DNA of 64,000 nucleotides from IMG/VR virus record IMGVR_UViG_3300045988_145635; one strand, 5' to 3'. Below the pieces are notes generated by a model that saw only the letters and a program-made list of their open reading frames with translations, was not told the origin of the DNA and did no database searches. This document shows, one piece after another, positions 8,847 to 40,838 of the stretch; positions within the stretch are counted from its first letter, which is position 1; each line of letters opens with the position of its first letter. The position numbers and the translations under genes are program-made. Source of the DNA: a virus. Lineage: Duplodnaviria > Heunggongvirae > Uroviricota > Caudoviricetes.

Positions 8847-9977
8847 GTGATTACTTATCTTTGTGAGGTTTTTGTGTCACTCCTTTTGAATCGTGAGCAT
8901 ACGAACGGTCAGGTAACAAACGCATCGTATGCAAAAGTTATTGAGACGGTGCTTAAAAGCGGCGTGCAGGCTGATGATCGCACAGGCACTGGTACTTTAA
9001 GCACCTGCTACGTTCCCTCTTACTACATGCTTACTGGTGGGACTGTGCCGCTTATTTCTGGAAAGGCGGTAAATCTTAAGCCACTGCTTGTCGAACTTGA
9101 GTGGTATCTGAAAGGCACGGGCAACATCCAATTTCTCAAGGATAACGGCGTTAAGATTTGGGATGCATGGGCCGATGAGAATGGCGATTTGGGGCCAGTT
9201 TACGGTAAGCAGTGGCGTCGATGGGAAGATACCCGCATCGTGAGCCATAGTGAATATCTGAGCAAGATCGCTACTTTCCGTGAACGCGGGTACAAAGTCG
9301 AGGGATACCTAGGTATCAGTGAAGATCGCGTAGTGCTGTCCCGTGAAATCGATCAGCTACAGCGTATTGTCGATACACTGCGCACGAACCCTACCGATCG
9401 TCGCATCATGCTTAACGCATGGAACGTAGGCGAGCTTGAGGATATGAAACTGCCACCTTGCCACTTTGTCTTCTCTTTGTGGAGTCGTGAGCTTGATTTT
9501 GAAACCCGTTTAACGATGGCAACTGACATTGGTCTTCAACACAGTCGCCTCGGTTACGAGTCTATCTACACCAAGATGCTATACGATCTGGAGATGGACG
9601 GCAGTGTTACTGAAGCTGAACTGGATGAACTTGGAATCCCCAAACGCATCCTCAACTCCTGCCTCGTACAGCGTAGCGTAGACACTTTTGTTGGTATGCC
9701 ATTCAATATTGCTGGCTATGGCATTCTCACTCATTTTCTCGCGAAGATTACGGGTCACATGGCCGGTGCATTTGTGCATTTTGGCTTTGACGTGCATTTG
9801 TACAACAACCACATGGAAGGTGTGTGTGAGCTAATGAAACGACAGGCTCCAGAGCATTCAGATCCGGTCGTTATTTTCCCTCATGAATGGTCAGAGTTGG
9901 ATGATTTCAAATGGGACGAGGTTTTAATTCTTGGCTATGACCCTCTATCGTGGATCAAGGTTCCAGTGGCGGTGTGA
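8847..9977 (+). CDS. thyA: thymidylate synthase homologue with internal insertion
   Basis: DRTGTGT, IWDAWADENGDLGPVYGKQWRRW, active-site LPPCH and DTFVGMPFNIAGY blocks; about 45 extra residues between the PCH and PFNIA blocks; start codon uncertain (ATG 8847 or GTG 8874). Confidence 0.85.
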   Translation: MITYLCEVFVSLLLNREHTNGQVTNASYAKVIETVLKSGVQADDRTGTGTLSTCYVPSYYMLTGGTVPLISGKAVNLKPLLVELEWYLKGTGNIQFLKDNGVKIWDAWADENGDLGPVYGKQWRRWEDTRIVSHSEYLSKIATFRERGYKVEGYLGISEDRVVLSREIDQLQRIVDTLRTNPTDRRIMLNAWNVGELEDMKLPPCHFVFSLWSRELDFETRLTMATDIGLQHSRLGYESIYTKMLYDLEMDGSVTEAELDELGIPKRILNSCLVQRSVDTFVGMPFNIAGYGILTHFLAKITGHMAGAFVHFGFDVHLYNNHMEGVCELMKRQAPEHSDPVVIFPHEWSELDDFKWDEVLILGYDPLSWIKVPVAV

Positions 9978-18185: not shown

Positions 18186-18467
18186 ATGGCATACGGTACA
18201 GGGATTTACAACAATAAAGGAATTAACGTTACTGGCTTCCTTACTCCTATTTTTTTTCTTGATCGATTTACTGCGTCATCAGGCTCTAAGACGTACTCCA
18301 ATCCGCCACCGGGTAAATCGCTACATGCCGTGTGGTCATTGATGCCTCTTAACAACGACAACTACATTAATTTACCTGTTCCAACAGTTACTATTAATGG
18401 AAATACGGTTAGTTGGTCAAATTTATATACGGGGCTTGGTTCTTACATATACACATACTGGGGATAA
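18186..18467 (+). CDS. hypothetical protein
   Basis: 93-aa ORF; stop overlaps the next start (TAATTATG). Confidence 0.3.
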   Translation: MAYGTGIYNNKGINVTGFLTPIFFLDRFTASSGSKTYSNPPPGKSLHAVWSLMPLNNDNYINLPVPTVTINGNTVSWSNLYTGLGSYIYTYWG

Positions 18468-18469
18468 TT

Positions 18470-19084
18470 ATGTTCGGGATGTCAATTACTCAATCAGATG
18501 GAAGTTTGTGGATGAGTCCAGAATTTACTCCGCAAAATCTGATTAATAAAGGGACAATGTCTACATCTAAAGGTTCTGTTTTTCAAACATCAATCCCATC
18601 AAACAAATCATGCTTTTTCTTCATAAAAAGCAGTAATAAGGCGAACATGATGTTTATTCATGAGCATAGTAACGGATACAATGCTCTCAGATTGCATCAG
18701 GTAAATGGTAGCCCCGGAACAATAACAGTTTATGCTTTTTCTGATATGGTGTTACCACATTCTGGCTATGGCATTGCCATGTATAACAGCGCAGGCGCAA
18801 TGGTGTATCACGGTGAGATGATGCCCCTTGATGCGAAACTTATCACTATTTCGGACCCTCAATTTACCATAGATGTGGGGTATCCGTGTGCGGTAATGCC
18901 TGCTATGGTTGGGGTTTATAACTATAGACGAACCGATTACGACAGACCTGTCTATGTAACTATGACCGGTGCAACTGGAAACCAAGTATATAACGGTCAA
19001 TGGTATTCCGGTAATGTCACATGGGATATTAAGAAGATTTATACAAACAAAATCCTGGTTATAAATACCTCAAAGTATGATTAG
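18470..19084 (+). CDS. hypothetical protein
   Basis: ORF-track entry 18413-19084 trimmed to the internal ATG 18470 that follows the upstream stop. Confidence 0.45.
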   Translation: MFGMSITQSDGSLWMSPEFTPQNLINKGTMSTSKGSVFQTSIPSNKSCFFFIKSSNKANMMFIHEHSNGYNALRLHQVNGSPGTITVYAFSDMVLPHSGYGIAMYNSAGAMVYHGEMMPLDAKLITISDPQFTIDVGYPCAVMPAMVGVYNYRRTDYDRPVYVTMTGATGNQVYNGQWYSGNVTWDIKKIYTNKILVINTSKYD

Positions 19085-19187
19085 CAAATACCTTTATTTA
19101 AAGGATTGCCTGTTAATTTCTATTTAGCACCTTTTCATTTTTGAAATAATTGCACCATTAAACAAATCTTTTCTTAATGGTGCAATT

Positions 19188-20873
19188 ATGAATACAGCTC
19201 TTTCCATCATCGACGATGCCAACTCAAACACTGCTATCGATTATCGTCAGGAAATGAACGTCATCCACGAAATTGTGGCCGAGTGCGAGAAGGAGATCGC
19301 CTTCATGTATCAGGTTCACGACTTCGTTTATGGAGACGAACGCCACAACATGATTAATCGCCTGCTGCAACTGAACCACCGACCAGATGAAGAACGCTCA
19401 CGTTTGAATCGAGCTTGGCTGGATAAAGTCGATCTGGAATGGGTGAAACAGAATATTTGGGCCGAGTACTGGAGGAAGGTCACGGATATGACTAACGTTC
19501 TGCTGATCATGCCAGCTTCCCGTCGCGACGAGTGGCGTGAGCAGTTTATCGAGGGTAAGCAGGAAGTCATCAAAACTGACAGAACCGGCTATCAGATGAA
19601 GGTAAAAGAGTTCGTTGGTGTACCGGAGTTCAAAGCAGAAACGGTCATACCCACGATGCTTAATTTGCTGAATGACAGGCACAAATATCTCTCTGAGCGC
19701 GTGTATGGCTTGTTTAAGGCGCTGAGTCCTGCGCACAAGACAAATAAGACAAACGGTTTCAGCGAACGTCTGATAATCGCTGACTGCATTTCTGATTTCT
19801 GGCGGGACAGCGTTAGTGTGAACTATCGCAAAGAGGACTATATCGACGATCTGCGTGTCTTGCTTCATTTCTTCGCGCACAAAGAATTTATTACCATCAA
19901 CCGCACTGCTGAGGTGCTATCAGCTGCGTATCGGGCAAACGACTGCCAGACCGGTGACTGGATGAACGTCGATGGAAATCTGATGCGCGTGAAGATGTTC
20001 AAGAACGGCAACGTTCACTTTGAAATACATCCTGACGTGGCCTGGAAGTTGAATGAGGTGCTGGCTTACAGTATGCCTGCTGCAATCCCCGCGCCATGTC
20101 GCACCGCGCCAAAAACACGGGCACCAAAGCAGTTCGGGTTAATCCAGAAGACGATCTCCGTGCCGGTTCGCACTGCGCTTCGTGACGGGCGATTGAGCAA
20201 AGACAAAGGCGTATGGTACTTCTCTGATTCAGCTCTCCAGAAGTCGCAGGTGGAAGAGCTTGAGCGCACACTGAGCTTCATTGGCGGCGTGCAGGAGAAA
20301 AAGCACTGGCAGTTCCCGTATGACATCGTCCATACGCTAAATACGATTGTGGCTACCGGTTTAATACCGGATACAAAATCACACCAGTTCTACCCTACCC
20401 CACGCTTGATTGCTGAGTACGTTGCCAGAGCCACTGAATTGAAGCCTGGTGAGAAGCTGCTGGAGCCTCAAGCCGGACGTGGGGATCTTCTGGCCTATAT
20501 TAACGCCGATCTGGAAGATGTTACCTGCATAGAAATCGCACCTCTCTTCGCTGATATCCTGCGTGGAAAAGGGTATACGAACACGATTTGCTGCGACTTC
20601 ATAAAGTGGTCTGAGGACAACGTAGGTTATCAGTTCGACAAAATCGTTATGAACCCGCCGTATTCGCTTGGTCGTCATAGAGAGCACACGCTGGCTGCGC
20701 TGGGGCATCTGAAAGTCGGCGGGCGTCTTGTAGCAGTATTGCCGGGCACTGCGCCAATACTGGACTGGATGACGATGGATAATTACGTTTATGCCAGAGG
20801 GAAGTCGTTTACCAACGAGTTTGAAGACACAGGGATCACAGTCAGCGTATACGTTTTCAAACGCGTTAAATGA
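19188..20873 (+). CDS. DNA N6-adenine methyltransferase with large N-terminal domain of unknown function
   Basis: C-terminal region has motif I LLEPQAGRGDL and motif IV VMNPPYS (gamma-type order); N-terminal ~400 aa unassigned. Confidence 0.65.
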   Translation: MNTALSIIDDANSNTAIDYRQEMNVIHEIVAECEKEIAFMYQVHDFVYGDERHNMINRLLQLNHRPDEERSRLNRAWLDKVDLEWVKQNIWAEYWRKVTDMTNVLLIMPASRRDEWREQFIEGKQEVIKTDRTGYQMKVKEFVGVPEFKAETVIPTMLNLLNDRHKYLSERVYGLFKALSPAHKTNKTNGFSERLIIADCISDFWRDSVSVNYRKEDYIDDLRVLLHFFAHKEFITINRTAEVLSAAYRANDCQTGDWMNVDGNLMRVKMFKNGNVHFEIHPDVAWKLNEVLAYSMPAAIPAPCRTAPKTRAPKQFGLIQKTISVPVRTALRDGRLSKDKGVWYFSDSALQKSQVEELERTLSFIGGVQEKKHWQFPYDIVHTLNTIVATGLIPDTKSHQFYPTPRLIAEYVARATELKPGEKLLEPQAGRGDLLAYINADLEDVTCIEIAPLFADILRGKGYTNTICCDFIKWSEDNVGYQFDKIVMNPPYSLGRHREHTLAALGHLKVGGRLVAVLPGTAPILDWMTMDNYVYARGKSFTNEFEDTGITVSVYVFKRVK

Positions 20874-22074: not shown

Positions 22075-22130
22075 AAATTGTTTTCTGCCTTTTCTTATTT
22101 GTGAAAATAACCACAACTAGAAAACAACGG
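22075..22130 (+). promoter_or_regulatory. class A extended module (AATTGTTTTCTGCC ... TTTGTGAAAAT ... AGAAAACAA)
   Basis: Conserved ~55-bp module also present at 30182-30247 and 34255-34305; ends about 10 nt before ATG 22139. Confidence 0.5.
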
Positions 22131-22138
22131 AGTTAAGA

Positions 22139-22780
22139 ATGTCTAGTATTTCCGAAGCACATATGTTCGCCGCTGGCGCTCATGGTGGCGTTGGTCAGAA
22201 AAGAAAATATACCGGCGAAAACTACATCAACCACCCGGTTGCTGTCCGAGAGATTGTTGCATTGCATGACGGAACCGTGGAGATGCAAATCGCGGCGCTT
22301 CTGCATGATGTGGTCGAAGACACCCATGTAACCATAGAGATGGTTCGTGATCACTTCGGTGAGCGCGTAGCTGAAATGGTTCAGGCTCTGACCAACATTG
22401 CAAGGCCAGAAGACGGCAATCGAATACAGCGTTTCATCATCAATGTCCGGGAGCTGGAGCAAAATCTCGACATGCAGACGCGCATGATCAAGCTGGCTGA
22501 CCTGCTCGACAATACCTCTTCTATCGTGAGTCGCGATCCTGAGTTTTCAGCTATCTACCTTGCAGAGAAAGAGCTGATGCTGGACGTACTTTTTAACGGG
22601 AAGGAGATTGGTGCCAACGCTGATGTTGTCGAGTACATGGAGAGGATAGGTATAGAACACCCGTTGTTATTAAGCGCAAAGGCGAAAGTCACTGAAGGTA
22701 TTGCGCTTCTGAAACCGGTACACATCAAACGTTATGAAAAACACAAATCGCTGATCTGGAGCGCGTGGGAGGCTGCATGA
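22139..22780 (+). CDS. HD-domain (p)ppGpp hydrolase-like protein (RelA/SpoT hydrolase domain only)
   Basis: HPVAVREIV ... AALLHDVVEDT block matching the SpoT/RelA HD hydrolase signature; 213 aa, no synthetase domain. Confidence 0.7.
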   Translation: MSSISEAHMFAAGAHGGVGQKRKYTGENYINHPVAVREIVALHDGTVEMQIAALLHDVVEDTHVTIEMVRDHFGERVAEMVQALTNIARPEDGNRIQRFIINVRELEQNLDMQTRMIKLADLLDNTSSIVSRDPEFSAIYLAEKELMLDVLFNGKEIGANADVVEYMERIGIEHPLLLSAKAKVTEGIALLKPVHIKRYEKHKSLIWSAWEAA

Positions 22781-23319
22781 AGGTCGAAAAAATAGATGTT
22801 CTTTCCTTTGTGCTGACGGATCTGGAACGCCTCGATCCGGTTCGAGTGATGATTGAAAACTACGAACCTGGTAAGGGAAGAATCACCATCACCTGCTACG
22901 GAAAAGCGTGGACTGCGGCTTGGTTTGCTATGGGCGGTGATGATGTGCAGACGTTCATTAAGCGAGTTAGCAACGATTATCTAATCGACAATTTCGACCC
23001 TCAACTGCTAAGCACGGTCGACGATGACAACGATGCAAATCTGCTTTTCGTAAAGTCAGAAATCATAAAGTTACGAAGAGAGAGAGAAATAGACGCCGTA
23101 CTGGCTCGCGAAATGTGGGACGAGGCGGAAAACGCCGATGACGTAAAAGAAAGCTGCTGTTGTTTCGGCGTCGGTAACAAACTGCTGAATCTCTTTGGTG
23201 ATGATCCGTGGTATGCCGACTGGCCAACGGTACCAAACCCGAAATACCAGTATCTGGAACGCATTGTGAACGCGGTACGTGAAGGGCTGAAAGAGTTAGA
23301 TAAGTTAGAGGCATCGTAA
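22777..23319 (+). CDS. hypothetical protein
   Basis: Start set to the ATG overlapping the upstream stop (ATGA). Confidence 0.5.
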   Translation: MKVEKIDVLSFVLTDLERLDPVRVMIENYEPGKGRITITCYGKAWTAAWFAMGGDDVQTFIKRVSNDYLIDNFDPQLLSTVDDDNDANLLFVKSEIIKLRREREIDAVLAREMWDEAENADDVKESCCCFGVGNKLLNLFGDDPWYADWPTVPNPKYQYLERIVNAVREGLKELDKLEAS

Positions 23320-23762
23320 TGAGAGAGAAAATCAAGAACCCGGTCGTCGTATTGTATAAACGGGAAACCAGCGATTCTTATGCGGTATCCATCACTGATG
23401 GAAGCCAGAACATGCACGATGGTCTGCTAATGGCCTCCGTATCTCCTGATGATTCTGACTACCCTTTCGCCACTTTCGCTATGGTTGGTTACTACATGGC
23501 TGCCGAAATTGAGAAGTTGCGTGTTGAGCTGGAGACCGTTAAACAGCGGGAAAAGGATCTGTTTATGGAAAATGTTCGACTTAAGTCAGGTATAGCAGGT
23601 CTGATACACCTCGGTATTCGATATGCGGATGTCGAAGTCATGAAAATAGCTGGAGATGCCCAGCTTTCTACTCCCTGTACTGACAGCATCATAAACAGTA
23701 TTGCATCAGGCGTTTTCACCAAAGAGGGTCAGCATGATGAGAACAGTAGAAGTTCGCGCTGA
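23319..23762 (+). CDS. hypothetical protein
   Basis: 147-aa ORF in the co-directional array. Confidence 0.5.
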   Translation: MREKIKNPVVVLYKRETSDSYAVSITDGSQNMHDGLLMASVSPDDSDYPFATFAMVGYYMAAEIEKLRVELETVKQREKDLFMENVRLKSGIAGLIHLGIRYADVEVMKIAGDAQLSTPCTDSIINSIASGVFTKEGQHDENSRSSR

Positions 23763-25578: not shown

Positions 25579-25596
25579 GCAATAGTACGATAAAGA

Positions 25597-25621
25597 GGCC
25601 CCATGCTCTTGATGGGGCCTG
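25597..25621 (+). terminator. hairpin AGGCCCCAT-N7-ATGGGGCCT
   Basis: 9-bp perfect inverted repeat directly after the stop of the 24952-25578 gene; no clean T-run. Confidence 0.4.
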
Positions 25622-26016
25622 TAGCAACTAGCGTTATGGACGCTGGTTTACGTACTCAATGATCGCTTTGATAATCGCGAACATCGGCGGCACGATTTTG
25701 AACAGTAAGTTAACCATAACAGGCCTCACTTAGTTTTATCGCGCCTAGCTGCAAATACCTTTGGGCTTGCCTTTGCAGTTGCAATATCTGTAGTCGCCAG
25801 ATACTTACGGCACGATTTCGAGTTAAGGTAAGGTTTTAGAGTCACCAAAAACCTGGACTTAAATCTTCTTTGAGAACAACGATGTTTAGTAAATGGTCAT
25901 TATTACCTGGTATGACCACTCAACGTTTCTTGATGAATCCAGTACATTCGGTTAATCTTAATTCAGTCGCCAGATACTTATGGCTCAGGAACAGAGCCGC
26001 AAACTCTGTTTCCTTT

Positions 26017-26047
26017 TAAAAAGCCCAGCCTAGTCAACTGGGCTTTT
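26017..26047. terminator. bidirectional rho-independent terminator
   Basis: AAAAAGCCCAG-loop-CTGGGCTTTTT: GC stem flanked by an A-run and a T-run. Confidence 0.6.
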
Positions 26048-26343
26048 TAATGTCTATTTTTAACCCAATGAACCTTCAATACCGCAACATCAGTGTCTTG
26101 CGAATTAAGATAGTGTGTATAGGTTATGCATGCAAGTGCATAACTCTGTGGATAACTCAGGAAGGAAAAAGTAGCTTCCGCGCAATTTAGGCCAGACAAG
26201 GCTTTCGCAAAAGTCAACAGAGAGAAAAAATTTGTTAAAAATAACGTTTGTTGGAATTGTATATATTTATGCCTTTCAATAGTTAGCATCTTATTAACAT
26301 CTTTTTTAAGAGATAGAGTTCAAAAATATATAGCTTCAACATA

Positions 26344-26363
26344 TACTGTATGTGTATACAGTA
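26344..26363. promoter_or_regulatory. LexA (SOS) box
   Basis: TACTGTATGTGTATACAGTA fits CTGT-N8-ACAG with AT-rich centre; 16 nt upstream of the umuD'-like start, overlapping its promoter region. Confidence 0.75.
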
Positions 26364-26379
26364 TTAAGAGGCGAGTATT

Positions 26380-26769
26380 ATGGGCTTCCCTTCTCCTGCG
26401 GCGGATTATGCTGAGAGCCGTATTTCTCTTGATCAGCAGATAATTAGACATCCTTCAGCGACCTACTTCATGAGGGCAGCTGATAGTCATCATCGTGAGG
26501 GAATATTGCAGGGCGCATTGCTGGTGGTCGATTCCTCACTTACCCCGGTTGATGGTTCTCTGCTTGTATGCGCTCTGGATGGGGAATATCGCGTAAAAAG
26601 ATACCGGAAGTATCCACGTCAGCATCTGGAGGATTTAAGAACTGGTAAGAAGGAAGCATTGCCAAAGGATGACGATGGATGCACGGGCAGCAATGCCGTG
26701 TTTGGTGTGATCACTCACATTATCAACGACGCAAGAAGTGGCGAGTTTGATGATTGTCCTGTGATGTAG
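26380..26769 (+). CDS. UmuD'-like protein (UmuD homologue beginning at the position of the RecA-mediated cleavage site)
   Basis: Begins MGFPSPAADY ... HPSATYF, matching UmuD residues directly after the Cys24-Gly25 cleavage site; Ser and Lys retained in ADSH and VKRY; AAGAGG ribosome-binding site; LexA box upstream. Confidence 0.75.
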   Translation: MGFPSPAADYAESRISLDQQIIRHPSATYFMRAADSHHREGILQGALLVVDSSLTPVDGSLLVCALDGEYRVKRYRKYPRQHLEDLRTGKKEALPKDDDGCTGSNAVFGVITHIINDARSGEFDDCPVM

Positions 26770-26780
26770 GAGAACTGTTT

Positions 26781-26806
26781 AGGTGGTGCAATGCACCACC
26801 TTTTTA
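26781..26806 (+). terminator. rho-independent terminator
   Basis: Perfect 10-bp palindrome AGGTGGTGCA/TGCACCACCT followed by TTTTAT, between the convergent umuD'-like and mrp genes. Confidence 0.7.
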
Positions 26807-27907
26807 TCACACTGCGCGGAATGCGATTTCGCCAGGTATTACTTCACCTTGCCAATACATTTGGGCAGCAACGCGATCTGCGAGGTCACGATAAATAGCC
26901 GTAAATTCGCTATCTGGACGACTAATAACGGTTGGTGTTCCGTTATCCAGATCTTCACGAAGAGAGATATGAAGTGGCATTTGGCCTAACAACTGCGTGT
27001 TGTATTTCTCGGCCAGTTTCTGTGCGCCACCGGTGCCAAAAATTGGCTCGTGATGACCGCAGTTACTGCAAATATGCACACTCATGTTTTCGACGATACC
27101 CAGTACCGGCACTTCGACTTTTTCGAACATCACAATGCCTTTCTTCGCATCGATCAGCGCGATGTCTTGCGGCGTAGTTACCACAACCGCACCAGTTACA
27201 GGAATGTTCTGCGCCAGCGTCAACTGAATATCACCAGTGCCCGGCGGCATATCGAGAACGAGATAGTCCAGATCAGGCCATAGAGTTTCCTGCAACATCT
27301 GCATCAGCGCCTTGCTGGCCATCGGTCCACGCCACACCATTGCATTGTCGTCGGTGACCAGATAACCAATAGAGTTGGTTGCCAGGCCATGAGACATGAT
27401 AGGTGCCATGTGAGTACCGTCCGGTGAGGTTGGACGTTGGTTTTCCGCGCCCAGCATGGTTGGAATTGATGGACCATAGATATCGGCATCCAAAATACCA
27501 ACTTTCGCACCTTCAGCAGCCAACGCCAGTGCCAGATTTACCGCCGTGGAGGATTTACCTACGCCGCCCTTGCCTGAGCTGACGGCGATAATGTTCTTAA
27601 CGCCATTAATGCCTGGTTGGTTTTTGACGCGCTTAAGCGTGGCAATGTTGTACGACAGCTTCCAGTCAATAGCCTTTGCGCCAGTGATACGGAGCAGATC
27701 ACCACTACATTGCTCTTTCAGGTCTTCAAAAGGCTTATTCCACACGAAAGGCATGATTAGTTCGACATGCAGTGTGTCATCCATCAACGCAACATGGTGT
27801 AACGCTTTAAGCGTAGTCAGGTTGTGTTTCAGGGTTGGGTGCTGAAAATTAGCCAGCGTACCGGCTACCATTGCTCTCAGGGCATCCGGCGATTTGGACT
27901 CGCTCAT
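26807..27907 (-). CDS. apbC: Fe-S cluster carrier ATPase Mrp/ApbC (host-type)
   Basis: 366-aa protein that matches recalled enterobacterial Mrp almost throughout (SGKGGVGKSSTAVNLALAL, CSNCGHHEPIFG); divergent from metG as in enterobacterial chromosomes. Confidence 0.95.
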   Translation of the reverse strand: MSESKSPDALRAMVAGTLANFQHPTLKHNLTTLKALHHVALMDDTLHVELIMPFVWNKPFEDLKEQCSGDLLRITGAKAIDWKLSYNIATLKRVKNQPGINGVKNIIAVSSGKGGVGKSSTAVNLALALAAEGAKVGILDADIYGPSIPTMLGAENQRPTSPDGTHMAPIMSHGLATNSIGYLVTDDNAMVWRGPMASKALMQMLQETLWPDLDYLVLDMPPGTGDIQLTLAQNIPVTGAVVVTTPQDIALIDAKKGIVMFEKVEVPVLGIVENMSVHICSNCGHHEPIFGTGGAQKLAEKYNTQLLGQMPLHISLREDLDNGTPTVISRPDSEFTAIYRDLADRVAAQMYWQGEVIPGEIAFRAV

Positions 27908-28064
27908 CCCGTCTCCTTTATTTTAATTTGCGCAATTGTCGCCTTGTAGTGTACTCCAGCTACGACATTTAATCATTTATGAGAAATGCTGTTATCACAT
28001 GGCAGACATAAGGCCATTTTGTTACTATCAAGCCCCTTTTCACTACAAAGAAGTAATGCCTACT

Positions 28065-30098
28065 ATGACCCAAGTCGCGAAGAAAATTCTGGTGACGTGC
28101 GCGCTGCCGTACGCTAACGGCTCAATCCACCTCGGCCATATGCTGGAGCACATCCAGGCTGATGTCTGGGTTCGTTACCAGCGAATGCGCGGCCACGAGG
28201 TTAATTTCATCTGTGCCGACGATGCCCACGGTACGCCGATCATGCTGAAAGCGCAGCAGCTTGGTATCACACCGGAGCAGATGATTGGCGAAATGAGTCA
28301 GGAACACCAGACTGATTTCGCAGGCTTTAACATCAGCTATGACAACTATCACTCGACGCACAGCGAAGAGAACCGTCAGTTGTCTGAGCTTATCTATACT
28401 CGCCTGAAAGAGAACGGTTTTATTAAAAACCGCACTATCTCTCAGTTGTACGACCCGGAAAAAGGCATGTTCCTGCCGGATCGTTTTGTAAAAGGCACCT
28501 GCCCGAAATGTAAAGCGCCAGATCAATACGGCGATAACTGTGAAGTCTGCGGCGCAACATATAGCCCGACTGAATTGATCGAGCCGAAATCGGTGGTTTC
28601 TGGCGCTACCCCGGTAATGCGTGATTCCGAACACTTCTTCTTTGATCTGCCTTCTTTCAGCGAAATGTTGCAGGCATGGACCCGCAGCGGCGCGTTGCAG
28701 GAGCAGGTGGCGAACAAAATGCAGGAATGGTTTGAATCCGGCCTGCAACAGTGGGATATCTCCCGCGATGCGCCTTACTTCGGTTTTGAAATTCCGGACG
28801 CGCCGGGCAAATATTTCTACGTCTGGCTGGACGCGCCGATTGGCTACATGGGTTCCTTCAAGAATCTGTGCGACAAGCGCGGCGATACCACCAGCTTCGA
28901 TGAATACTGGAAGAAAGACTCCACCGCCGAGCTGTACCACTTCATCGGTAAAGATATTGTTTACTTCCACAGCCTGTTCTGGCCTGCCATGCTGGAAGGC
29001 AGCAACTTCCGCAAGCCGACCAACCTGTTTGTTCACGGCTATGTGACAGTGAACGGCGCGAAGATGTCCAAGTCTCGCGGTACCTTTATTAAAGCCAGCA
29101 CCTGGCTGAATCATTTTGACGCCGACAGCCTGCGTTACTACTACACTGCGAAACTCTCTTCGCGCATTGATGATATCGATCTCAACCTGGAGGATTTCGT
29201 TCAGCGCGTGAATGCCGATATCGTGAACAAAGTGGTTAACCTGGCCTCCCGTAATGCAGGCTTTATCAACAAGCGTTTTGACGGCGTGCTGGCAAGCGAA
29301 CTGGCTGACCCGCAACTGTACAAAACCTTTACTGATGCCGCTGAAGTGATTGGCGAAGCATGGGAAAGCCGCGAATTTGGTAAAGCTATCCGTGAAATCA
29401 TGGCATTGGCTGACCTGGCTAACCGCTATGTCGATGAACAGGCTCCGTGGGTGGTGGCGAAGCAGGAAGGGCGCGATGCCGATCTGCAGGCGATTTGCTC
29501 TATGGGCATTAACCTGTTCCGCGTGCTGATGACGTACCTGAAACCGGTACTGCCGAAACTGACTGAACGTGCAGAAGCATTCCTGAATACAGAACTGACC
29601 TGGGATGGTATCCAGCAACCGCTGCTGGGCCATAAAGTGAATCCGTTCAAGGCACTGTATAACCGTATCGATATGAAACAGGTGGAAGCACTGGTGGAAG
29701 CATCCAAAGAAGAAGTGAAAGCCACAGCCGCACCGGTAACTGGCCCACTGGCTGACGACCCGATTCAGGAAACCATCACCTTTGACGACTTCGCCAAAGT
29801 TGACCTGCGTGTGGCGCTGATTGAAAACGCGGAGTTTGTTGAAGGCTCTGACAAACTGCTGCGTCTGACACTGGATCTCGGTGGGGAAAAGCGTAATGTC
29901 TTCTCAGGCATCCGTTCTGCTTATCCCGACCCACAGGCATTGATTGGTCGTCACACCATTATGGTGGCTAACCTGGCTCCGCGTAAAATGCGCTTCGGTA
30001 TCTCCGAAGGCATGGTGATGGCTGCTGGCCCCGGCGGGAAAGATATCTTCCTGTTAAGCCCGGATGCTGGTGCTAAACCTGGCCACCAGGTTAAGTAA
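28065..30098 (+). CDS. metG: methionine--tRNA ligase (host-type)
   Basis: 677-aa protein from [25 protein letters not shown] to the C-terminal tRNA-binding domain; essentially identical to recalled E. coli MetG with a handful of substitutions; HIGH and KMSKS motifs present. Confidence 0.97.
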
Positions 30099-30250: not shown

Positions 30251-30559
30251 GTGGTTGAAATGTTGAACATTACCCAAGCCTACCAGGTGGCATTGATCAG
30301 TTCATCTCATACATCAGAGGAAGATGCTCGTCGATTCATGATCGCAAGCAATGAGCTGGATTGGGTTTCGCAAATTGACGGCGGTTGTATTGTCCACGCC
30401 GGGTTACAGGATGATGTCTGGAAAGACGACTTGCGTCGATATGGTATATCCGAAGGCGCGATTGCTAACATTCAGAAAGTACTTGATGTAGGCTTTGACT
30501 CTGTACATTTTGATTGTGGTGCGCCGGTCGTTGAAGGGCTTGAGTGCTGGAACTGGTAA
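30251..30559 (+). CDS. hypothetical protein
   Basis: 102-aa ORF directly downstream of a class A module. Confidence 0.5.
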   Translation: MVEMLNITQAYQVALISSSHTSEEDARRFMIASNELDWVSQIDGGCIVHAGLQDDVWKDDLRRYGISEGAIANIQKVLDVGFDSVHFDCGAPVVEGLECWNW

Positions 30560-30604
30560 CAGATATTAAAGCATTGGTAGTTTGTTTTTAGGATTATCAA
30601 AGAA

Positions 30605-31339
30605 ATGAAAAAGTTGAAAAGTTTAGAAATCCCTGGGACTGGTTATAAATTCTTTATGGACAACGCGGAGTGTGCACCTAACGCGTTGGAAAAAATACAA
30701 AGTCTTATCAACAGCCTTACTGAAGAAGCGAAAGAACTGAAGAGCGAGGCGACAAAGGACAATACAGCTAAAATCCAATGCTTAAATCTCGTTTCTTATT
30801 GTTTATATCAAGTGTCCAAGACACTGATTAAAGGCAATATCTATTACGACGATGAAGACACCTCGACACCTGAAGAAAAAGATAGCGATGAAGAACTCTA
30901 TGAAGATATCTCTACTAGTGCGGGTCACGCTGCCTTCGATGCTATGGGTAAATCGTCAGGCATCAGATCATTTGTTGAACAGAACAATTCGACAATAATG
31001 ATTGAGTACTGTGAACAAACAAGCTCCAAGGCCATACATGTTCTTCACGATGTTGCTGCAGGGGTTCGCTGTGAGGCTGAAGCGGTCAGAAAAGATGTAT
31101 TTGGTGCAGACAGTAATACCGTGAAAGCGTTCATCAACAGTGCTCTGCTAAATTCTTACTCAAACCTTATCGTCAATGCGGCACTATGCGCAAATTCTGG
31201 TGAAGAACACATTGTCATAACCGAAACCAAATATGAGCATCAACAGTCACCAACCATAGAAGAGGTAACTGCATTGGCTATCAAACAGGCGAGTGAAATT
31301 AGTGATGAAATTCTCTCTCTGCTAAACAAAACTAAGTAA
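30605..31339 (+). CDS. hypothetical protein
   Basis: 244-aa ORF with plausible ribosome-binding site. Confidence 0.5.
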   Translation: MKKLKSLEIPGTGYKFFMDNAECAPNALEKIQSLINSLTEEAKELKSEATKDNTAKIQCLNLVSYCLYQVSKTLIKGNIYYDDEDTSTPEEKDSDEELYEDISTSAGHAAFDAMGKSSGIRSFVEQNNSTIMIEYCEQTSSKAIHVLHDVAAGVRCEAEAVRKDVFGADSNTVKAFINSALLNSYSNLIVNAALCANSGEEHIVITETKYEHQQSPTIEEVTALAIKQASEISDEILSLLNKTK

Positions 31340-31446
31340 AACATTGATAATGGCGGTCACAATTTGATTCTTTTCTATAAGAATCCGTTGATCGCCACTA
31401 CTCCCCTTCCATGCCTGGAATCACATCCTTAAATATCAATAGGTTA

Positions 31447-37587: not shown

Positions 37588-37887
37588 TTACATCTTTTTT
37601 GCATAGTTCCTGATTTCTTTTATTATATATTCCTGAAAACGCTCCGAGTTTTCGCATTTGTCTTTTGAAGACTCATCAAGTCCCAACTTGCATCCCGCAA
37701 CGATCAGTCCATCTTGATATGCAGCGCCTAAAGCCATGCTTAGGTCTAACATGCACAAATCGTAGTCTTCCGCCTTTGAACACAACTCTGTAGAGACACG
37801 TTGCACTCGTTCAATGCTATTTTCTTGAGAAAATGCGGAAGAGCTAAAAATGAAAGTTAAGAATGTGAATGCTGCTACAGTTTTCAT
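37588..37887 (-). CDS. small secreted Cys-containing protein (paralogue A)
   Basis: N-terminal signal peptide MKTVAAFTFLTFIFSSSAFS; four cysteines with spacing similar to the paralogue at 37963-38259. Confidence 0.5.
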   Translation of the reverse strand: MKTVAAFTFLTFIFSSSAFSQENSIERVQRVSTELCSKAEDYDLCMLDLSMALGAAYQDGLIVAGCKLGLDESSKDKCENSERFQEYIIKEIRNYAKKM

Positions 37888-37903
37888 ATCAATATCCTAA
37901 AAC

Positions 37904-37955
37904 GGTAAAATTCGGTCAACCAAATCGAAGAAAACAAGAATTTTTCTGCCGTCTT
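37904..37955. repeat. 52-bp direct repeat, copy 1 (second copy at 38270-38321)
   Basis: GGTAAAATTCGGTCAACCAAATCGAAGAAAACAAGAATTTTTCTGCCGTCTT, about 94% identical to the copy that encodes the C-terminus of the 38263-38826 ORF. Confidence 0.8.
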
Positions 37956-38826: not shown

Positions 38827-39211
38827 CCCAGGTAGTGAAAACCCGATATGTTTTCGAATCGCCCTGCTTTAGCTTTATTTCTCGTTCCATCCTGGAGGGG
38901 TTAAATGCGCAAAGACCTGAACTTTCAATTGATGTCCCAACGATCCACTCTCCTTCGTTAAGGTAGAAAGTTGCTTTTTCACCAGGTTCTAGCTTTGCAG
39001 CCGTTTCTCCATTGATGAAAATGGAAGCGTTACATGCAGAACCAACCAGCCCTTTGTCTCGAACTATTGTTAGACTAGACTCATGTGGTGTTTGATATTT
39101 AAATATTCTGCTTTGAGGTGCATCCTTTGCCTTTGAAATAGATATAGACGAAGACGAACACCCAATTAGTGACGTGGTTAGCATTAGAATCATTAAGTTT
39201 TTTGCTTTCAT
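38792..39211 (-). CDS. putative lipoprotein
   Basis: MKAKNLMILMLTTSLIGCSSSS: signal peptide with LIGC lipobox; 139 aa. Confidence 0.6.
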   Translation of the reverse strand: MKAKNLMILMLTTSLIGCSSSSISISKAKDAPQSRIFKYQTPHESSLTIVRDKGLVGSACNASIFINGETAAKLEPGEKATFYLNEGEWIVGTSIESSGLCAFNPSRMEREIKLKQGDSKTYRVFTTWDGTMDILPTTL

Positions 39212-39238
39212 ATTTGATTGACTATGATTAGTGAGTGG

Positions 39239-39787
39239 CTACATGCTATTCTGAGTTCTGTTGTAAATATCTTTTAAGAGGTCATCTCTTTTTATGTTTT
39301 TACAGACTTTGTCGAAACTTAATTCACCTGATGATATGCAGTTGTTGTATTTTTCGATAAAATTTTTTAATGCCAGATGATTTTTGAAAAGAAAAGAAAA
39401 ACCATAGGGTGACGTGCTATCTCTTATCCATTTCCGAGCACTGGGATAAGTGTATAAATTTGAATGCAACTCCAATTTTCCAGGGGCCACGCCATCACAG
39501 GAGTCCATAATAGCGAACATTTTTGATATATCAAAAGGATAAAAGACTACTCCGCAATTTGTCCTGGTGCCTTCAATATCTTTCACGTATATATAGTGTT
39601 CATAACGATCTTTACGTGAAGTCTTTAACCTGTATTGTATTAGTTTGTGCTCTTCTTTTTGAGAAGAAGTTAGGTGTCTAGGGTTTTCTAAGCAAGATTT
39701 CTGTTTATTTTTTTTATGATAAAAATCCACACAGTCCTTTATTTCCTTTGCACTTAAAAATCTCTTATCAAAAGGTAAGTGACCCAT
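39239..39787 (-). CDS. hypothetical protein
   Basis: GGAGG site 5 nt before the ATG; 182 aa; AT-rich codon usage. Confidence 0.5.
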   Translation of the reverse strand: MGHLPFDKRFLSAKEIKDCVDFYHKKNKQKSCLENPRHLTSSQKEEHKLIQYRLKTSRKDRYEHYIYVKDIEGTRTNCGVVFYPFDISKMFAIMDSCDGVAPGKLELHSNLYTYPSARKWIRDSTSPYGFSFLFKNHLALKNFIEKYNNCISSGELSFDKVCKNIKRDDLLKDIYNRTQNSM

Positions 39788-39927
39788 TCATGCCTCCGGT
39801 TCTAAACATAGGTAAGCCTACAAATATCGTTCAGCCAATCAAGATCTTTTTTCAGCCGGAGGTATATGTTTCAAAAAACGTGACGAATGTCACATGCAGG
39901 TGCTCTCATACACCTGCATGTAGACTA

Positions 39928-40494
39928 TTAATCATTCAATAATCTATATTTTCTTTTGATTAAATCTTCACCTTTTTTGGTGAACACAAAACCAAATTGC
40001 GATTTTTTGTTCAGCCTAAGGACTCTGTTATCCAACGCATCGGTTGATGGAATCAATGTTTGATCATCTATCCAATTTAGTAGCGTAAGAAAGTTCAGCA
40101 GCCTCAACGTTGTTGTGCGAAGCTCTTTCGATATATTTTCAATGCTGGCAATTCGTCTTTCTTTTTTCTCAGGTGGTACAGATAATTGTTCTTGAGGTTT
40201 CGTGGATAGATAATCAATTTCGTTTGCAGCATCGAATGATATATGTGGCGTAATTTTGCTAAAAAAGCCTTTCGCTGACTCACTTGATAATAAACCAGAC
40301 CTATTCATATCGTTTGTTATTCTGTACAGGAGTGGACTGTGTTTCATTTCAGGATAACGTTGATAAAAGTTAAGCAATTCAAAAGCAGCATTAGCGCCAA
40401 CAAGAAAATCAGAAGGATCGCTGACTTTCCAGAAAGAATGATTTTTCTTAGCGCCAGTGGTGTCAACAAATGATAATTCTTTTAACCAACTCAT
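39928..40494 (-). CDS. hypothetical protein
   Basis: ORF-track start 40527 trimmed to ATG 40494, which follows an AAGGAG site at 6-nt spacing. Confidence 0.5.
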   Translation of the reverse strand: MSWLKELSFVDTTGAKKNHSFWKVSDPSDFLVGANAAFELLNFYQRYPEMKHSPLLYRITNDMNRSGLLSSESAKGFFSKITPHISFDAANEIDYLSTKPQEQLSVPPEKKERRIASIENISKELRTTTLRLLNFLTLLNWIDDQTLIPSTDALDNRVLRLNKKSQFGFVFTKKGEDLIKRKYRLLND

Positions 40495-40559
40495 GATGTG
40501 CTCCTTTCTAACAAGTGAGCACATCATAGAATTAGTAGATAGGGGGTAAATATGAAATG

Positions 40560-40838
40560 TTACGGCAACCTGCTCAGTATTTCCTCTAAATCTTTTTTTG
40601 TCATATTGGAGTTTTCATAGATGCGCATGATTTTCTCACGCGTCTTAGCGGAAACCCCAACAGCAGATGTGACTTTGTCAAATTCAGCCATAGTCATCGT
40701 CTCCAGAATGGCATTGATAACTTCAGCCTTAGACATCTTAATTTTTTTCTCTTTGAGTTTTATTTGAAATTTTCCAAGTTTTTCATTGGCCTTATCAGAC
40801 AATGCCACTTGGCAATAAGTTGTTTTTTTTTCGCTCAT
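40560..40838 (-). CDS. hypothetical small protein
   Basis: 92-aa Lys-rich ORF immediately downstream of the helicase gene. Confidence 0.45.
   Translation of the reverse strand: MSEKKTTYCQVALSDKANEKLGKFQIKLKEKKIKMSKAEVINAILETMTMAEFDKVTSAVGVSAKTREKIMRIYENSNMTKKDLEEILSRLP

Follow-up and report, generated by a model that had tools for sequence, protein, structure and literature searches.

The question raised by this locus is why a short UmuD'-like reading frame, placed behind an SOS box, stands without a umuC gene next to copies of mrp and metG, and whether it belongs to a phage or to a block of host genes. We analysed it within a window of 64,000 nucleotides of viral DNA, all coordinates being those of the window unless another sequence is named. 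We identify the gene as humD, which is UmuD' in the form carried by phages and phage-plasmids, and the whole window is part of an SSU5-like phage-plasmid, humD belonging to the mobile element. The locus is composed of the following features:

26319..26347, plus strand: sigma-70-like promoter with TTCAAA (-35, 26319..26324), a 17-nt spacer and TATACT (-10, 26342..26347); its 9/12 consensus matches are no rarer than chance in the AT-rich stretch upstream of humD.
26344..26363, no strand assigned: LexA (SOS) box TACTGTATGTGTATACAGTA, a palindromic operator recognized by its match to the consensus and by a position homologous to the annotated sites of P1 humD and phiKO2 gp23.
26366..26371, plus strand: Shine-Dalgarno motif AAGAGG, 8 nt 5' of the ATG, read from the sequence.
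26380..26769, plus strand: humD, coding for a UmuD' homologue of 129 aa that is pre-processed and has the S24 peptidase fold, recognized by its ORF and by its matches to NF051876, 1umu and P1 HumD.
26781..26806, plus strand: intrinsic terminator of humD, with a 9-bp stem (6 GC pairs), a 3-nt loop and a TTTTTA tail.

The limits of the gene are well defined on both sides, humD forming a self-contained transcription unit. Its product begins MGFPSPAADY and its stop codon is located at 26767..26769. An in-frame TAA at 26365..26367, four codons upstream of the ATG, makes a longer upstream reading frame impossible, so that the short N-terminus is real, and the same start position is common to 10 homologues. 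The stop codon upstream and the shared start together rule out an annotation artefact hiding a longer ORF, the weak point that the first-pass annotation had itself designated. On the 3' side, the terminator hairpin (26781..26801, GC-rich and followed by the T-run) is stable at -15.3 kcal/mol (z = -2.86), and the next gene is the convergent apbC/mrp on the minus strand (26807..27907), as had been read from the letters for both the strong terminator and the convergence with mrp. The Rfam scan of the window returned no family at its gathering score.

The identity of the protein was assigned from profile and structure comparisons. The NCBIfam equivalog model NF051876, "HumD family translesion DNA polymerase", was matched with 219.8 bits for a cut-off of 120 and from end to end, residues 1-129 covering profile positions 1-129 of 129. 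The UmuD model NF007621 (Pol V autoproteolytic subunit) gave 87 bits and did not reach its cut-off of 110, the LexA model TIGR00498 gave 27.2 bits for a cut-off of 110.95 and was matched only over profile positions 91-166, its C-terminal part, and the only Pfam match was the generic Peptidase_S24 (PF00717; 37.9 bits, gathering score 23.3). In the comparison with solved structures UmuD' came first (1umu, E = 6.7e-23), LexA chains being matched at E = 1e-3. HumD residues 2-116 align with UmuD residues 25-136 (8gmt_B), M1-G2 being opposite C24-G25, and G2 corresponds to Gly25 of UmuD as well as to residue 1 of 1umu. S36 and K73 stand at the positions of UmuD Ser60 and Lys97, the Ser-Lys dyad thus being kept, while the N-terminal arm and the Cys/Ala-Gly self-cleavage site are absent, the protein beginning at the post-cleavage glycine. 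The proposals that the ORF starts immediately after the Cys24-Gly25 cleavage site and encodes a pre-cleaved UmuD' form are therefore borne out by the alignments. The gene has every testable feature of the HumD family and lacks three of the four UmuD features (a score above the model cut-off, the N-terminal arm with its cleavage site and a place in a umuC operon). The HumD-family identity, described for P1, was absent from the earlier reading, which is correct but not new: humD is here an ordinary copy of a known family.

Alignment with the phage UmuD-like families leads to the same assignment. HumD of P1 has the same length of 129 aa and 118 identical residues out of 129 (91.5%), a difference of 8.5% which could have a functional consequence. 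Two proteins are identical to the one studied here, CYRAN_98 of Escherichia phage Cyrano (pLF82), labelled "LexA-like peptidase S24" by its annotators, and RefSeq WP_000506720.1, named "HumD family translesion DNA polymerase" by PGAP. In the phage collection, the identities are 98-99% for the proteins of CMS-2020a and PhiR41_1, 91-93% for the HumD of P1, P7, D6, RCS47 and SJ46, and 64-71% for the orphan UmuD-like proteins of phiKO2, N15, HK140 and HK639. The protein is also present at an identity of at least 99% in 149 PLSDB records. The catalytic Ser position is occupied by Thr in the HumD-like proteins of phiKO2, N15, HK140, HK639 and Ecl_MII_001, and in HK639 the catalytic Lys is moreover replaced by Met; P1, D6 and the window HumD keep both Ser and Lys. 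The loss of these residues, seen in the alignment, would be consistent with protease activity being less needed once a protein is made in its cleaved form, but this does not account for the retention of the dyad in the present HumD, which needs no cleavage. A C-terminal tail NDARSGEFDDCPVM (residues 116-129, window 26725..26766) is conserved in all the HumD-like proteins examined and is absent from E. coli UmuD, whose end comes about 10 residues earlier.

The near-consensus SOS box announced upstream of the ORF was confirmed by scoring. Compared with TACTG(TA)5CAGTA, TACTGTATGTGTATACAGTA has 2 mismatches, both of them central; it is the sole 20-mer with 3 mismatches or fewer in the 64-kb window, and none of 100 dinucleotide-preserving shuffles gave such a match. 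The CTGT-N8-ACAG core by itself is not rare (0.77 expected by chance), so that the significance of the box rests on the full 20-mer; a chance origin is ruled out for the 20-mer and the 8-base core alone is not significant. The end of the box is separated from the humD ATG (26380) by 16 nt, as first noted, and the -10 hexamer TATACT overlaps the box. No other promoter-like site was found over 25900..27000, but TTCAAA-17-TATACT has to be taken as a consensus match only, the shuffles giving a mean of 2.6 such sites. The operator differs among near-identical plasmids at window 26352..26354, with GTGT in the window and in Cyrano (2 mismatches) and GTAT in the sister plasmid pMB3825A_2 (1 mismatch; compared at L001 12745..12764), a variation by which the strength of repression may be tuned.

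The operator is also a feature of the family. The curated P1 record contains a "LexA binding site in the regulatory region of lxr and humD" located 19 nt upstream of humD, and the E. coli umuDC box TACTGTATATAAAAACAGTA is likewise 19 nt upstream of its ATG. The upstream regions of nine homologues were extracted and searched for LexA boxes. Boxes with 1-4 mismatches were found 14-44 nt upstream in P1, D6, N15, phiKO2, HK639 and Enterobacter phage Ecl_MII_001, and one (TACTGTACAGATAAACAGTA) is again present in the sister phage-plasmid PhiR41_1, 18 nt from the ATG, although the DNA upstream of the gene is not the same there. LexA boxes are therefore kept upstream of seven homologues, including where the surrounding DNA differs. 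HK140 is the sole exception, no box being detected within 200 nt upstream of its start, where the gene directly follows another small ORF. At the nucleotide level, the window resembles P1 (84%) over 26344..26768, from exactly the first base of the box to the stop codon, and neither the -35 region nor the terminator of humD is shared with P1. Since the similarity is confined to the box and the coding sequence, both behave as one exchangeable cassette ('moron'), which has passed between unrelated temperate phages.

The nature of the carrier was established from its relatives. Of the 64,000 bases of the window, 59,457 align with pMB3825A_2, a complete sister plasmid of 114 kb encoding RepB and ParB-family partition proteins together with terminase, portal, capsid and tail genes, as well as its own RecA, DnaE, primase, DnaB-like helicase, ligase, NrdAB and tRNAs. 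Full-length matches to 25600..27200 were found in 97 out of 5,426 complete E. coli genomes, all of them on plasmid-sized records of 100-240 kb; the gene thus does lie beside mrp in Escherichia genomes, but on plasmid-sized records only. The humD-apbC junction is also present in the phage genomes Cyrano and CMS-2020a. Cyrano is pLF82, an SSU5-like phage-plasmid producing siphovirus virions (PMC9928086), and the Cyrano paper makes no mention of UmuD or LexA (PMC9928086).

The apbC(mrp)-metG segment (26807..30098) is 88% identical at the DNA level to K-12 mrp-metG over 3,298 nt, and 347 of the 369 residues of ApbC are identical. Similarity to K-12 begins at 26811, four bases beyond the apbC stop, and the block is bounded almost exactly by two stop codons. 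Because the chromosomal homology begins at the apbC stop, humD and its terminator lie outside the captured block. The segment is a copy captured from an enterobacterial chromosome, the donor being apparently an enterobacterium other than E. coli. The first-pass annotation had taken the mrp segment for a host block; this does not hold for a plasmid-borne captured copy on an SSU5-like phage-plasmid. A prophage inserted beside the chromosomal mrp is ruled out, since the matches are on plasmid-sized or phage-plasmid records, 59.5 of the 64 kb correspond to one phage-plasmid and the identity to K-12 is 88%. A complete methionyl-tRNA synthetase and a carrier of Fe-S clusters are thus part of the cargo of the phage-plasmid.

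Several observations were made on the element and on the surroundings of the locus. About 800 nt upstream of humD (25579..26379) are without annotated gene, and a small RNA or small protein gene could lie there. At 26027..26044 (plus strand), just past a 49-aa TTG ORF (25870..26019), a hairpin and its T-run resemble a terminator, with no Rfam match. The interval also contains an 80-aa ORF on the minus strand (26047..26289), divergent from humD, whose start is 55 nt from the LexA box. This ORF matches phrog_28987 (function not assigned) at E = 6e-57, was annotated neither by PGAP nor by the Cyrano curators, and has a composition resembling that of an AT-rich spurious ORF. By analogy with P1 lxr, a divergent SOS-controlled transcript opposite humD is conceivable. 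In pMB3825A_2, outside the window, a second strong LexA-like box TACTGTATAAGTAAACAGTA with 3 mismatches (19501..19520) is located 27 nt upstream of the start of a tyrosine recombinase gene (18371..19474, minus strand), and its position points to a further gene under SOS control in these phage-plasmids. In the same plasmid, an ISEcp1-blaCTX-M-14-IS903B insertion, with a TonB-receptor fragment, splits the thymidylate synthase gene; the window is colinear around 9014..9022 (compared with L007 5550..10345) and is without the insertion. The segments 22114..23720, 30551..31343, 37591..37952 and 39061..40589 of the window are not shared with pMB3825A_2; they fall in an ead/Ea22-like gene cluster and downstream of metG, and constitute the variable cargo of the lineage.

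If HumD acts as a UmuD', it needs a partner. The absence of an adjacent umuC, stated at first sight, was extended to the whole element: tblastn of E. coli UmuC gave no homologue in the window (best E = 9.9) or in the whole of pMB3825A_2 (best E = 2.9), and no Y-family polymerase is annotated in the latter. A hidden umuC elsewhere on the element is thus ruled out by tblastn and by the annotation, and, since no UmuC homologue is carried, the partner of HumD would most likely be the UmuC of the host. For P1 HumD, the curated record states that the gene "functionally complements E. coli UmuD'", the protein is presented by McLenigan et al. (1999) as a functional UmuD' homologue that facilitates SOS mutagenesis, and humD is referred to as a LexA-regulated SOS gene in PMC9603915. 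By comparison with P1 HumD, we infer LexA binding, partnership with the host UmuC and an effect on mutagenesis for the present protein.

Taken together, these data make it very likely that humD encodes an SOS-controlled, pre-cleaved UmuD' which joins the host UmuC in a Pol V-like enzyme. In the undamaged cell, the host LexA, bound to the operator over the -10 hexamer and the transcription start, would keep humD off. Upon DNA damage, activation of RecA* would lead to the self-cleavage of LexA and to the transcription of humD. Met1 is likely removed, Gly being at position 2, which would leave the N-terminus GFPSPAADY as in UmuD'. HumD would in this way skip the slow activation of UmuD to UmuD', no RecA*-mediated cleavage being needed, and its dimer with the host UmuC would form an active Pol V-like translesion polymerase. 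The delay before mutagenic translesion synthesis would be shortened, and both damage tolerance and SOS mutagenesis would rise in the cells carrying the element.

Several other hypotheses could be issued. UmuD-family dimers contact Pol III subunits and RecA, and Pol V is down-regulated by UmuD/UmuD' heterodimers. HumD might for these reasons be a modulator or a damper, forming heterodimers with UmuD or UmuD', or binding RecA filaments, Pol III subunits or the replication proteins of the element; it could then delay replication or alter the SOS timing to the benefit of the phage-plasmid, with no Pol V-like enzyme formed. The proximity of humD to hot, a homologue of Pol III theta, in P1 and D6, the RecA, DnaE, DnaB-like helicase and primase encoded by the sister plasmid, and the tail NDARSGEFDDCPVM, which is found in all HumD-like proteins and not in UmuD and suggests an additional interaction, are in agreement with such a role. 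We nevertheless hold it to be improbable, since positive UmuD' complementation and a facilitation of SOS mutagenesis are stated for P1, both in its record and in the title of the paper, and nothing in the present data indicates inhibition. A related hypothesis starts from the replication genes of the SSU5-like elements, which, in contrast to P1, code for a RecA, a Pol III alpha, a helicase and a primase of their own: HumD might work with the element-encoded RecA and replisome, and not (or not only) with the host UmuC, as an SOS-timed replication checkpoint or as a mutator for the element, in which case the HumD-specific tail would be the interaction surface. We regard this as very unlikely. 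The ORF could also be what is left of a LexA/CI-type phage repressor, its S24 C-terminal domain, after loss of the DNA-binding domain, and intervene in the choice between lysis and lysogeny, for instance through the poisoning of repressor dimers. The generic Pfam match, the weak LexA matches (27 bits for TIGR00498, E = 1e-3 for the LexA chains) and the label given to the Cyrano protein are compatible with this origin. A 129-aa protein has no space for an HTH domain, the N-terminal DNA-binding domain of LexA and CI-type repressors being absent. UmuD' is matched better than LexA by some 20 orders of magnitude, the N-terminus GFPSPAADY has the signature of UmuD', the HumD equivalog model is matched over its full length and the same cassette occurs in unrelated phages with unrelated immunity regions, which together render this origin extremely unlikely. 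Finally, a silent passenger or decaying remnant without function in the element, as might be supposed of an accessory gene located in a variable region of the element, beside host genes that were captured, has a negligible chance of being correct, given that many plasmids carry the ORF in intact and identical form (the 149 PLSDB records, and the entire locus in 97 complete E. coli genomes), that box, Shine-Dalgarno and terminator are all intact, and that the box was kept despite the replacement of the upstream DNA in PhiR41_1.

With humD as an SOS-controlled UmuD' provided in its processed form, the distribution of the cassette is of some practical interest, the SSU5-like phage-plasmids that carry it being common in clinical and animal E. 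coli. In bacteria exposed to antibiotics, SOS mutagenesis could proceed faster with a UmuD' that such elements supply ready for use; one sister plasmid, pMB3825A_2, carries blaCTX-M-14.

Compared with the known systems, the closest is humD of P1, for which the family, the pre-cleaved architecture, the LexA control and the effect on SOS mutagenesis were already described in 1999. Both genes encode 129 aa with the MGFPSPAADY start, the same Ser and Lys positions and the C-terminal tail, both have a LexA box just 5' (19 nt in P1, 16 nt here) and no adjacent umuC, and both belong to a phage maintained as a plasmid. The only differences lie in the carrier, a P1-like myovirus in one case and an SSU5-like siphovirus phage-plasmid in the other, and in the neighbours. 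In P1, humD is preceded by hot/lxr and followed by phd-doc, whereas here it faces the convergent apbC-metG; the P1 operator is shared with the divergent lxr, whereas no divergent lxr-like gene is annotated here; and the promoter and terminator sequences of P1 are unrelated to the present ones. E. coli UmuD/UmuD' (1umu, 1i4v, 8gmt) has the S24 fold, about 38% identity, equivalents of Ser60 and Lys97 that are kept in HumD, and in umuDC a LexA operator at about the same distance. In contrast to UmuD, HumD is without the 24-residue N-terminal arm and the Cys24-Gly25 site, so that no RecA*-mediated processing is needed; it contains in addition a small insertion, is extended by 10 residues at its C-terminus, and is not part of a umuC operon. 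The orphans N15 gp26 and phiKO2 gp23 and those of HK140 and HK639 have the same length and start and, in most cases, a LexA box, followed after the gene by a terminator, which makes each of them a self-contained moron at a module boundary; they differ by the Thr in place of the catalytic Ser, and HK639 by its Met in place of Lys, and in phiKO2 and HK140 the gene is paired with a divergent dinI homologue, none being seen here. Finally, mucAB, impAB, rumAB and samAB are likewise LexA-regulated UmuD-family genes borne by mobile elements (thousands on plasmids, with less than 60% identity), but they encode full-length cleavable UmuD homologues, always with their own UmuC-type polymerase, whereas the humD described here is pre-truncated and solitary.
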